From NCBI GenBank assembly GCA_016180435.1, contig JACPBG010000001.1, forward strand, positions 216,006-280,005: a stretch of DNA of 64,000 bases, written 5' to 3'. Below are positions 3,651 to 53,707 of this stretch, in pieces. Origin of the DNA: Candidatus Sungiibacteriota bacterium (GTDB lineage: Bacteria > Patescibacteriota > Minisyncoccia > Sungbacterales > HO2-52-23). The number at the start of each line of letters is the position of its first letter. The stretch's first letter is position 1. The translations under genes were made by a program, and so were the position numbers. The notes beneath the pieces are model-generated. The model was not told the DNA's origin, ran no database searches, and saw only the letters and a list, made by a program, of their open reading frames with translations.

Positions 3651-3797
3651 ATTATTCTAATTGTTCTAATTAACCTAATTGTTCTAATCAATGACCATAA
3701 AAAATGTCTAATGACCAAAACTATTTTAGATATTTAGACATTCGCAAAATTGGGATTTAATTAGGTAAATTAGAATAATTAGGTTAATTAGAATAAT
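3651..3797. repeat. AT-rich palindromic intergenic element E1 built from TTCTAAT / ATTAGAA heptamer arrays
   Basis: Left half attattctaattgttctaattaacctaattgttctaat; right half aattaggtaaattagaataattaggttaattagaataatt is its inverted counterpart; near-identical copy at 5158-5299. Confidence 0.8.
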
Positions 3798-12966: not shown

Positions 12967-13150
12967 GAAAAAAGCTATCGCTCCCCTTACAGGGCTGGCA
13001 TTGGCACTATTCCGCTTTTAACGGAACTTTGCTGGCGGGTCATAGGGCCAGATCCCTCACCGCACTCTGGATAAAACATAAATTTTGATTATCTATATAA
13101 TACATGCAACTATACAAAAAACAAGAAAGTTTTCCACAAACATCCGACCA
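12966..13150 (-). ncRNA. Candidate small non-coding transcript (unclassified)
   Basis: ~180-nt GC-richer stretch between two minus-strand terminators, preceded by AT-rich promoter-like sequence at ~13085-13130, ending in the terminator at 12936-12966; contains several helices (gggccagatccc, ccgcttttaacgg); no match to SRP/6S/RNase P/tmRNA motifs that I could recognise. Confidence 0.2.
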
Positions 13151-21014: not shown

Positions 21015-21041
21015 GATACATCAAGAATTGAGTTTTTTGAT

Positions 21042-21081
21042 TTGTATCTAATTTTACGCTTAAGCGTAAAATTAGATACAA
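21042..21081. repeat. 40-bp perfect palindrome TTGTATCTAATTTTACGCTTAAGCGTAAAATTAGATACAA
   Basis: 19-bp perfect arms around a central TTAA (contains CTTAAG); lies between convergent genes but lacks a T-tract. Confidence 0.85.
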
Positions 21082-21093
21082 AATGAATTTACG

Positions 21094-21123
21094 AAAAATG
21101 AAACTCCACGGGCAAGCCCGTGG
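21094..21123 (-). terminator. Rho-independent terminator of arginine decarboxylase gene
   Basis: Minus-strand ccacgggcttgcccgtgg followed by agtttcattttt. Confidence 0.55.
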
Positions 21124-21174: not shown

Positions 21175-21777
21175 CTATGACTGAATCGCAGGGGAAACGG
21201 CGCCACTCAGCATTCCGGATTGATCTTCGTAATCGGCAAACACGGCGGCGGCAAAGACCGTGGTCCATAGGCCGTCTTTATTACCAATAGCGGATTGAGT
21301 GATATTGGAAGTGCGTACGATTTTCTCGGACATTTTAAAAATTTGTTCCCTCTCATCCCAGGCGGTATCGGAATCAAATTCAATGCCCAAAGTGGTTGCC
21401 AACATGCTGGCAGCCAAATCCTCGGCATAATCCCCGGCTTTTTCTTCGGTCTCGCCAAAAGAATGATGCTCGGAAAGATAGCCGTGCTGATCCGGGTCCG
21501 CCGGAATCGCACAACCGACCGACGCGGCAACCAGGCGATTGGGCTCATTGCTTGATTCACGGTCATACACGCAAAAAACGATTTCCCCGGGTTTTAAAAG
21601 TTTCAATCCTTCTTCTTTGGAAACGCGCTTGGCTCCGGGCGGATAAATGCTGGAAACCAAAACCAAATTACAATACGCGATACCCGCATCGCGAAGCGCC
21701 AACTCAAAAGAAGCGAGCTTTTCTTTATGCACGCCCACGCCTTTGGTGAAAAATATTTTGGTGGGAACTAAGTTCAA
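21175..21777 (-). CDS. pdaD: Pyruvoyl-dependent arginine decarboxylase (PdaD family)
   Basis: 200 aa; N-terminal [37 protein letters not shown]; the NLVxVSSIxPP segment matches the PdaD Ser-Ser self-cleavage site. Confidence 0.65.
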
Positions 21778-21779
21778 AT

Positions 21780-22068
21780 TCGCTATAGCGGTTTTCGACC
21801 GCTACAATTTCAGACACGACTCGGTTGCTCCTGCGGCAACCTCGCTAAGGGTCGGCGCGGTTTTCCGCGCAAAGCGCGGATCCAAGCAAACCGCGCCTCC
21901 CATTGTCTGAAATTGCAACGGCCTCAACCGCCTGTATGCTCACCTTAGGGTTTTCTTATTGTATCCGCTTTCAGCGGACTCTCCCATTGCCTAAAATCAT
22001 GTGACTTTAGCCATCCGTATACTTACCTTAGGGTTTTCTTATGGTGGCCGCCTTTGGCGGCCAACTAA
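21780..22068. other. Structured GC-rich intergenic region with two ~40-bp tandem direct repeats (CCTTAGGGTTTTCTTAT + hairpin)
   Basis: Copies at ~21943-21985 and ~22025-22065; additional inverted pairs caatttcagaca/tgtctgaaattg and several GC hairpins; function unknown. Confidence 0.5.
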
Positions 22069-22485
22069 TTAGTTACCTTCATTTCTAATCCTACCTTTCC
22101 GATATCTACGGACAGAGCGAGCAAGATGCATTTCTTTTTTTATGCGGCGCGCGCCGCGGCGCTTCAGGGCCTGGCGTTTTCCCTTAAAATGCACCAATTC
22201 TCCCTCAATCTCGTCTTTTAGAAGATCAATTGCGGTTCGCGGATCTTGATCGTCCGCCACGGCCCGCAAAAGTTTACTGCCGATTCGCAGATTCACCTCG
22301 GCATGATACACCTTGCCTTTGCGGTGATGTTCGGTGGTTCGCGAAATTTCAATTTCCAGGATCGGCAAGTCCGATTCTGCCGCTTTTTTCATGCGTAGTT
22401 CCACCGGCCGGACGATTTTTTCTTCAGCGTAAATTCGCAGTGCCGGAGTTAAGACCAAATTTTTGGCATAAATTTTAAAACGCAT
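22069..22485 (-). CDS. hpf: Ribosome hibernation promoting factor / RaiA (S30AE family)
   Basis: 138 aa; MRFKIYAKNLVLTPALRIYAEEKI...LEIEISRT...GKVYHAEVNLRIGSKLLRAVADDQD typical of HPF/YfiA. Confidence 0.8.
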   Translation of the reverse strand: MRFKIYAKNLVLTPALRIYAEEKIVRPVELRMKKAAESDLPILEIEISRTTEHHRKGKVYHAEVNLRIGSKLLRAVADDQDPRTAIDLLKDEIEGELVHFKGKRQALKRRGARRIKKEMHLARSVRRYRKGRIRNEGN

Positions 22486-31382: not shown

Positions 31383-32294
31383 TCAAAAAATATGCAACAG
31401 AGTTTTCAACTCATTTATTCCGTCAACAAAAGATATTTTTGGTTCCCAGCCGAGAAGTTCTTTGGCTTTCTTGATATCGGCCAAAGTTTCTAATACTTCG
31501 CCCTGGCGCGATTCGATAAATTTCCACGGCCCGCCGATCATCTCGGCGATTTCAAGAACACTGTAGTTCGTTGCCGTACCGATATTTACTATTTCTCCTT
31601 TGCCTACTTGACCGGATTTCATGGCAAGCAAATTGGCGCGCGCCACATCCGTAACGTGCGTAAAATCCCTACGCTGGGTCCCATCCGGCACCACACTCAT
31701 TGGCGTACTATTCGCACGTTGCTCTAAAAAAATTCCAATTACAGTTGCATATGGTCCGTCGGAAGCAGTGGTTTGCCGAGGCCCATAAACATTAAAATAA
31801 CGCAAAGAAACTGTTTCTAGGCCATAAAAACGCGCGGCCATTTCGCAATATTGCTCCCCCACTCTTTTCTGAATCGCGTAAGGAATAATGGGCTCCGGAC
31901 GCATGTCCTCCGTAAGAGGCATCACATCTTTTCTGCCGTACGCGGAGGAAGACGCGGAATACACCACTCTTTTGACTCCCGCATCGCGCGCCGCCAAAAG
32001 AACATTCAACGTTCCAGTAATATTGATATCATTGGTAAGCCGCGGCTCTTTCAGGGAATATTGCATTCGGGGTTGCGCCGCAGTATGGAAAATTCCCGCT
32101 GCACCCTTGAAAACCGGCGCAAGTTTGTCAAAATCGCGGATATCCATCTCATGAAGGATGGCCTTAGGATTTAGCCGCTCGCGCTTGCCGGTCAAAAAAT
32201 TATCAATAACATGCACTTCGTCGCCGCGCGCAATCAGCATATCCACAATATGGGAGCCGATAAAACCAGCCCCGCCGGTTACAATAAATTTCAT
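31383..32294 (-). CDS. NAD-dependent nucleotide-sugar epimerase/dehydratase (extended SDR)
   Basis: 303 aa; TGGAGFIGSH Rossmann motif, YxxxK (YAIQK). Confidence 0.85.
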   Translation of the reverse strand: MKFIVTGGAGFIGSHIVDMLIARGDEVHVIDNFLTGKRERLNPKAILHEMDIRDFDKLAPVFKGAAGIFHTAAQPRMQYSLKEPRLTNDINITGTLNVLLAARDAGVKRVVYSASSSAYGRKDVMPLTEDMRPEPIIPYAIQKRVGEQYCEMAARFYGLETVSLRYFNVYGPRQTTASDGPYATVIGIFLEQRANSTPMSVVPDGTQRRDFTHVTDVARANLLAMKSGQVGKGEIVNIGTATNYSVLEIAEMIGGPWKFIESRQGEVLETLADIKKAKELLGWEPKISFVDGINELKTLLHIF

Positions 32295-32326
32295 TAGGAA
32301 TTAGGAATTAGGAATTAGGAATTAGT
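32294..32326. repeat. Tandem heptamer array (AATTAGG)x4.5 abutting the epimerase start codon
   Basis: attaggaattaggaattaggaattaggaattag; on the coding strand (CTAATTC)n runs directly into ATG with no Shine-Dalgarno. Confidence 0.85.
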
Positions 32327-53539: not shown

Positions 53540-53547
53540 TAAACCAT

Positions 53548-53704
53548 TTAATAACCCCATATTCTGCTGCAATTGCAATATTTCGGCTGCGGCGCCCAAC
53601 GGCTCAAACTCGCCGTATCAACCGATACGCCTCGTTTTCCGCCGGGGCGTCTCGCTCGAAATATTGCAATTTCGCAACGAAAGAGGGTTATTAAACGGTT
53701 TCTA
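53548..53704. mobile_element. 157-bp element with ~38-bp imperfect TIRs (TTAATAACCC...GCAATTGCAATATTTCG / CGAAATATTGCAATTTCGC...GGGTTATTAA)
   Basis: Fills exactly the space between convergent rfbB and GT2 genes; long inverted arms with ~70-nt GC-rich interior; alternatively a giant bidirectional terminator-like hairpin. Confidence 0.5.
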
Positions 53705-53707
53705 ACC

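Follow-up and report, generated by a model that had tools for sequence, protein, structure and literature searches.

Riboswitch aptamers built on a three-way junction, for instance those for purines, TPP and single glycine that have a translational expression platform, are formed by a closing helix round the junction, with covarying stems and with invariant junction, bulge and loop bases, and they occupy the 5' region of metabolic genes. We describe here an element that is alike in this architecture and placement and that lies between the genes for a hibernation factor (hpf) and for pyruvoyl-dependent arginine decarboxylase (pdaD) in a 64,000-nt stretch of DNA from a Candidatus Sungiibacteriota bacterium, hereafter the window. 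The likeness may extend to a contact between bulge and loop (CUUG of the bulge and CAGG of the P6 loop), as judged by inspection and with no covariation support. The element differs from these aptamers in that it has no match to an Rfam riboswitch (E <= 10), in its closing helix, which is of 20 to more than 100 bp rather than a short switchable P1, and in that one instance lies 3' of the gene and one relative is without the junction.

The raiA motif of Rfam is an orphan structured RNA often found beside raiA/hpf, upstream of raiA in Bacillota and Actinomycetota. The present element is likewise a large structured orphan RNA beside a hibernation-factor gene; unlike the motif, it is downstream of hpf and in Parcubacteria, and the Rfam scan gave no raiA match. 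Intercistronic RNase III hairpins and repeat-derived mRNA hairpins, such as the rpsO-pnp leader and the Correia, ERIC and BOX elements, have no conserved sequence-specific apical domain or are multi-copy. With these the element shares long imperfect hairpins in what would be an operon transcript, variable sequence and length, and modular tandem units, but it is single-copy in 64 kb and has a conserved junction.

The genomes of bacteria of the Candidate Phyla Radiation (CPR) are tiny, few regulatory RNAs are known from them, and we know of no RNA element so far tied to pyruvoyl-dependent arginine decarboxylase; a search of the literature found no paper connecting pdaD with a riboswitch. The spermidine riboswitch (PMC10853860) is a close variant of a SAM aptamer and has been proposed or shown to regulate polyamine-related genes. 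A polyamine-related function is also what the initial annotation of this DNA, made by eye from the letters, had imagined for the region; the element differs from that riboswitch in having no SAM-family match. A covarying junction of ~90 nt with invariant loops, beside a gene of the polyamine pathway, represents a concrete and small candidate for tests of ligand binding or self-cleavage. Were the element only a lineage-restricted mRNA hairpin it would be of local interest, and it would still show long intercistronic hairpins growing, duplicating and varying between strains of such bacteria.

The region between hpf and pdaD

Both flanking genes lie on the minus strand: hpf at 22069-22485 (Pfam Ribosomal_S30AE; stop codon 22069-22071) and pdaD at 21175-21777 (Pfam PvlArgDC, E = 3e-63), the latter with a TTG start at 21775-21777. 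The relevant RNA is for that reason the minus-strand intercistronic transcript, on the 3' side of hpf and the 5' side of pdaD, and the gene calls and Pfam agree with the initial annotation in placing the site there. The same annotation had singled out a GC-rich stretch of ~290 bp; the gap, 21778-22068, is of 291 nt, and its GC content of 0.52 is the highest among the 32 non-coding segments of the window (length-weighted mean 0.38). The second GC-richest non-coding segment is at 53540-53707 (168 nt, GC 0.48).

On the minus strand the region folds at -131.7 kcal/mol as compared to -89.8 +/- 5.0 for shuffles (z = -8.4), and on the plus strand at -116.6 kcal/mol (z = -6.3). The hpf-pdaD spacers of the window and of two loci fetched for comparison, L087 and L093 (fetched loci are cited by L-numbers throughout), all fold as long nested hairpins, with z = -8.1 in L087 and -5.3 in L093. 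The sense-strand fold is as stable as the antisense fold or more so in the window, L093 and L082. On the sense strand we count 5-11 G-U pairs per sequence against 0-1 A-C mismatches, an asymmetry that points to RNA.

Read 5' to 3' on the minus strand, the element starts 5 nt past the hpf stop with a GC hairpin, UGGCCGCC-AAA-GGCGGCCA (hp0-A, 22045-22063), which has no U-tract after it and is also found after the hpf stop in L087 and L093. It is followed by a 26-nt single-stranded motif, AUAAGAAAACCCUAAGGUAAGUAUAC (core-A, 22017-22042), which is conserved in L087 and L093 and has CCTTAGGGTTTTCTTAT as its reverse complement. The remainder of this first unit (unit A, 21979-22012) is a local hairpin, GGCUAAAGUC-ACAU-GAUUUUAGGC, and then AAUGGGAGAG; together they repeat, in truncated form, the start of the closing helix and of the junction, and the same duplication is present in L093. 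A second copy of the GC hairpin, UCCGC-UGAAA-GCGGA (hp0-B, 21964-21978), leads to a second core, AUAAGAAAACCCUAAGGUGAGCAUAC (core-B, 21934-21959), to which a core preceding the long hairpin of L046 is related; in the minimum-free-energy fold the 3' end of core-B, GCAUA, pairs with UAUAGC beside the pdaD start codon.

The second copy runs into a long closing helix. Its 5' arm (21904-21931) consists of P1, GCGGUU, a GA internal loop and the 20-nt P2, GGCCGUUGCAAUUUCAGACA, and its 3' arm (21788-21816) of UGUCUGAAAUUGUAGCGGUC, GAA and AACCGC, so that P1 and P2 together amount to 26 bp in the window. The sequence of P1 is conserved in L087, and P2 differs there in sequence and length; three of the 20 P2 pairs in the window are G-U and pair on the minus strand only. 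Enclosed by this helix is the three-way-junction domain of 88 nt (21817-21904), supported by covariance-model matches and covariation, in the order AAU-GGGA, P4 of 10 bp with a 7-nt bulge GCUUGGA, the P5 hairpin, GA-CCC, the P6 hairpin (21823-21841, loop CGCAGGA) and GAGUCG. The 10-nt tail, UAUAGCGAAU (21778-21787), abuts the pdaD start codon and lies in a 28-nt block 93% identical to L087 that contains the palindrome CGCUAUAGCG. From the end of the closing helix to the start codon there are 4 nt in the window, and 4-9 nt across the window, L087 and L093.

The 17-mer CCTTAGGGTTTTCTTAT has exactly two occurrences in the 64 kb, spaced by 83 nt, as compared to a chance expectation of 0.18 (one of 100 shuffles gave two). 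These occurrences belong to a direct repeat in two copies, with a 44-nt block at 82% identity and a 17-nt block at 88% identity, equally spaced; each tandem copy is ~83-84 nt long and comprises the GC hairpin and the 26-nt core AUAAGAAAACCCUAAGGURAGYAUAC, and the 5' copy is a partial duplicate. Tandem Repeats Finder made no call on the repeat, which has only two copies that are too divergent. The two tandem units about 80 bp apart of the initial annotation are thus real, and its repeat length of 40 bp needs correction to ~83-84 nt. Its inverted pair caatttcagaca/tgtctgaaattg is likewise present, within a 33-nt arm pair that belongs to the long closing helix.

Relatives of the element and covariation

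Starting from homologues of the Hpf protein, we reached two lineages that have the order hpf-spacer-pdaD. In Parcubacteria GW2011_GWA2_45_30 (LCKU01; loci L082-L091 and L102) the spacer is of 404 nt, and in the Logan contig L093 it is of ~280 nt. The first hairpin and the core are common to L087 and L093; L087 also has the signature of the junction, and L093 keeps the repeats with their hairpin, the core and the long hairpin, without the junction. From the window and L087 we built a covariance model of the junction (R1); run on 90 sources (the 89 fetched loci and the window), it gave one further match, at L046:3093-3202 (26.3 bits, E = 3e-4). The model matches scored 118.7 bits in the window, 88.8 bits in L087 and, with a rebuilt model (R2), 64.9 bits in L046; over the fetched loci R2 found no locus beyond these three. 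L046 is from Parcubacteria Gr01-1014_20, whose PdaD is 76% identical to that of the window. Its element, a 13-bp rod and the junction with the related core before the rod (z = -5.8), is on the pdaD strand, past the pdaD stop and ahead of the hup (HU) gene and its promoter.

Comparison of the region by blastn and nhmmer with the pdaD-upstream DNA of 80 GTDB species, among them Binatia, Deltaproteobacteria and Giovannonibacteria with PdaD 71-88% identical, revealed no similarity; the gene order in Giovannonibacteria is murB-pdaD-hpf and the spacers are short. The sister lineages L045 and L105-L107 are without the element, as are Giovannonibacteria L003 and L026. In L045 pdaD is followed directly by the hup promoter, and in L105-L107, the nearest PdaD clade, tRNA genes stand beside pdaD. 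A metagenome scan with the core motif AGAAAAYCCTAARRWNAGYATAC, a pattern too strict for members like that of L046, returned the LCKU01 lineage and two chance matches only. Conservation in orthologous intergenic regions, the lack of which the initial annotation had named as counting against its reading, is partial: the element is kept in L087 and, without the junction, in L093, but it is absent from some 80 other pdaD loci and from the nearest PdaD clade.

Covariation with homologous regions, proposed there as a check, is found in the junction helices among three lineages of groundwater bacteria, a sample of three sequences. In an alignment of just these three independent sequences (the window, L087 and L046), fitted to the model, 92% of cells are paired and both sides have changed in 19 of 32 pairs; none of 500 shuffles attained these values of pairing and covariation, and sliding the 3' partners by 1-3 columns reduced the paired fraction to 32-49%. 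A manual alignment of the same sequences, made independently, agreed: it gave Watson-Crick pairs in 29 of 30 cells of P4, with 7 of its 10 positions varying, and pairs in all 18 cells of P6, with all six positions varying. Across the three lineages the unpaired GGA, GCUUGG, GCCGA and CGCAGGA, 21 nucleotides, are invariant. Stems kept by compensating mutations, together with invariant loops, are the signature left by selection on an RNA for a particular fold.

The strains of the LCKU01 lineage differ from one another in an uneven manner. L082 and L088 each have at most two differences from L087 elsewhere over 4.4 kb, as compared to 16 (L082) and 4 (L088) in the 3' arm of the long hairpin (~3708-3765). 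In the hairpin the differences all fall in the 3' arm and the 5' arm is invariant, and six of the eight changes at paired positions keep pairing via G-U. This cluster may have arisen by recombination over a short tract or by template switching in a quasi-palindrome. A second cluster, of 46 differences from otherwise identical strain contigs, is seen in L085 at ~2100-2250 inside murB, which is there split into two ORFs; it may stem from recombination or from a chimeric assembly.

With regard to pdaD itself, the protein is 83-88% identical to those of MAGs of Binatia, Deltaproteobacteria, Acidiferrales, Chloroflexota and Verrucomicrobiia (L002-L044), at least as close as to other PdaD proteins of the CPR, which suggests that pdaD may have been recently transferred horizontally across phyla.

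Known families and sequence signals

The initial annotation had recognised no known RNA family, and a scan with the 4227 models of Rfam 15 likewise placed none at gathering in the region; the best match at E <= 10 was RAGATH-12, with 18 bits against a threshold of 75, and in L087, L093 and L046 the scan gave noise only. ARAGORN found no tRNA or tmRNA. Promoter and terminator scans called nothing inside the spacer in the window, L087 or L046, and such signals are recognisable elsewhere in these genomes: for instance, a promoter-like TTGATT-17-TATAAT is present just upstream of hpf and ends 11 nt before the hpf ATG. On the minus strand of 21778-22068 the terminator scan found none, the hairpins preceding the A-rich core and having no U-tract. 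No other copy of the element was found within the 64-kb window, in plasmids or phages (blastn) or in viral contigs (two scans, 0 matches).

Several known structures were compared with the element and set aside. A tandem glycine riboswitch is not indicated, there being no RF00504 match at E <= 10 and the tandem units being hairpin and core rather than two aptamers. For 6S RNA, a rod of ~180 nt with a large central bubble (RF00013), there was again no Rfam match; the 5' strand of the junction is of 2-3 nt, and the length of the element is ~150-330 nt. The hammerhead ribozyme had no Rfam match either, and its CUGANGA/GAAA core (N variable) is not at the junction by inspection, where the strands are AAU, UUAGCGA and GAGUCG in the window and UGCA and GAAGCC in L087. 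An intrinsic terminator would need a GC-rich stem-loop with a U-tract, which the element does not contain. At the GGA/GA loop the length of the bulge is unsuitable for a K-turn. As for an integron attC site, the arms GGTT...AACC run opposite to the R''/R' consensus, and both neighbours are housekeeping genes.

Readings in terms of translation or transcription signals fared no better. Neither a 41-aa ORF at 21802-21927 nor the short ORFs that follow the core show conservation, and the changes on both sides of the stems point to RNA rather than to a leader peptide or small ORF. The candidate promoter inside the core, TTGGCC-N17-TAAGAA, is without the final T of the -10 box, is missing in L087 and was not called by the scanner. 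A split Shine-Dalgarno or ribosome standby site was considered at UAAGGUGAG, but this sequence is not kept in L093 or L046, and Shine-Dalgarno sites are mostly lacking from the genome. We also considered the template and variable repeats of a diversity-generating retroelement: the changes in the arm of L082 and L088 are mostly C-to-T rather than adenine-specific, the arm is inverted rather than a direct repeat, and no reverse transcriptase is found beside the element in the window or L087. Elsewhere among the fetched loci, L092 has at 1587-2958, immediately ahead of an hpf 74% identical to that of the window, a bAvd accessory gene and a reverse transcriptase (RVT_1), which suggests that this locus may carry such a retroelement.

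Possible roles of the element

The region is, we are highly confident, a genuine structured RNA domain that belongs to no catalogued family. Its role we read more tentatively: it is quite possible, and to us the preferred reading, that it is a cis-acting domain of an hpf-pdaD transcript, with the junction as a putative binding module and the closing helix abutting the pdaD start. On such a reading hpf and pdaD would be transcribed together, and the element would exert its effect in cis, on its own mRNA. [quoted passage not shown] Polyamine or arginine as the ligand is pure conjecture.

What the initial annotation had offered, a cis-regulatory RNA upstream of pdaD, stands insofar as there is a conserved structured RNA on the gene-sense strand in three lineages; the claim is weakened by the position downstream of pdaD in L046 and by the missing junction in L093. 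The covarying aptamer-like fold with conserved unpaired nucleotides that is expected of a riboswitch is present, in three sequences only. The steady position in a 5' UTR that is also expected is not seen, the domain being upstream of pdaD in the window and L087 and downstream in L046, where, lying 3' of the gene, it cannot be the pdaD leader. Moreover, at 20 to more than 100 bp across lineages the closing helix is far too stable for a thermodynamic switch, and a strong occlusion of the pdaD start region receives no support from the accessibility calculation: the predicted unpaired probability from -20 to +10 of the start has a mean of 0.47 and ranks 28 of 58 genes, which is ordinary. With regard to initiation in general, 48 of 58 long ATG-start ORFs in the window are without a Shine-Dalgarno-like motif. 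In several genes of the window, hpf among them, a TATAAT-like box precedes the ATG by 5-15 nt, which suggests that leaderless or very short-leader mRNAs may be common in this genome.

A bolder reading would make the junction the aptamer of a new riboswitch class, plausibly for arginine, agmatine or a polyamine, that governs pdaD in Parcubacteria or, as a rarer alternative, a new self-cleaving ribozyme whose cut in the hpf-pdaD message would yield a near-leaderless pdaD mRNA, in an organism mostly without Shine-Dalgarno sites; we judge this unlikely.

The element might instead be an autonomous RNA module whose proximity to pdaD is incidental, either a new self-cleaving ribozyme or a small RNA processed from the mRNA, which would separate the cistrons or release a stable RNA. 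The change of position relative to pdaD, 5' in the window and L087 and 3' in L046, would suit such a module, as would its presence in L046 and absence in the sister L045, the lack of a promoter or terminator of its own, the tandem partial duplication, and the combination of invariant unpaired bases with covarying stems, as in small ribozymes. We consider it rather unlikely, given that no ribozyme or sRNA family of Rfam matched even at E <= 10, that the hammerhead core is missing at the junction, and that all four occurrences directly adjoin pdaD on the pdaD strand, an adjacency which is partly an ascertainment effect since all loci examined were fetched via pdaD or hpf. The variable position would also fit an independently transcribed gene for a trans-acting small RNA beside pdaD, in which the conserved loops CGCAGGA and GCUUGG could serve as seed regions; in another CPR lineage (L103) there is indeed a small promoter-plus-terminator unit upstream of pdaD. 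This is the least probable reading in our judgement, and the independent ncRNA that the initial annotation had allowed for is not favoured: neither a sigma-70-like promoter nor an intrinsic terminator flanks the element in the window, L087 or L046, and the candidate -10 box in the core, TAAGAA, does not have the invariant final T.

Alternatively, a generic element of mRNA processing or stability, such as an RNase III site or a 3'-exonuclease barrier right after the stop codon, might tune the stability of the upstream against the downstream cistron. The element starts 2-35 nt past a stop codon in all four lineages, its long helices are kept as structure and not as sequence or length, and near-identical strains vary in the 3' arm, mostly with G-U pairing retained at the changed paired positions (six of eight). 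Such a role would leave unexplained the 21 invariant unpaired nucleotides and the junction that covaries across lineages with PdaD only 76% identical, and none of the hairpins has a U-tract or is a canonical terminator; we think it unlikely. The confinement of strain differences to one arm, together with the tandem duplication, could also be laid to a selfish or neutral quasi-palindromic DNA repeat of the MITE, REP or BOX type, or to the residue of an hpf/pdaD rearrangement, with the hairpin kept by template-switch repair; the order pdaD-hpf in L003 and L103 as compared to hpf-pdaD here, and the insertion/deletion polymorphism between L045 and L046, point the same way. We judge this very unlikely, as only one copy of the element exists in 64 kb and nothing similar turned up in plasmids, phages or viral contigs, as changes on both sides of pairs with invariant loops across distant lineages are untypical of mobile repeats, and as the strand asymmetry, with G-U far above A-C, points to RNA.

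The promoter-plus-terminator unit of L103, where the order is pdaD-hpf-secA, spans 2338-2590: a TTGACA-16-TAAGAT promoter is followed by ~50 nt of hairpin-forming sequence and, before pdaD, by a strong 15-bp intrinsic terminator, with a second promoter-like site ~10 nt before the pdaD ATG. This unit may function as a small sRNA or as an attenuator, and it shows no sequence relationship to the hpf-pdaD element.

Within the window, the sole Rfam family above gathering is a SAM-I riboswitch (RF00162) at 12972-13077 on the minus strand, with 53.2 bits against a gathering threshold of 44.4. Between the 3' ends of pdaD and a convergent ORF of 340 aa there is a near-perfect AT-rich hairpin of ~25 bp (~21032-21088), which drew spurious miRNA matches and is likely a bidirectional terminator; a terminator-like sequence, CCACGGGC-TTGC-CCGTGG, is found at 21106-21123, and a homologue search with the hypothetical 340-aa protein returned only itself. 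A tandem heptamer, CCTAATT, of at least 3.5 copies (~32295-32320), lies directly upstream of the ATG of a 303-aa minus-strand ORF at 31383-32294.
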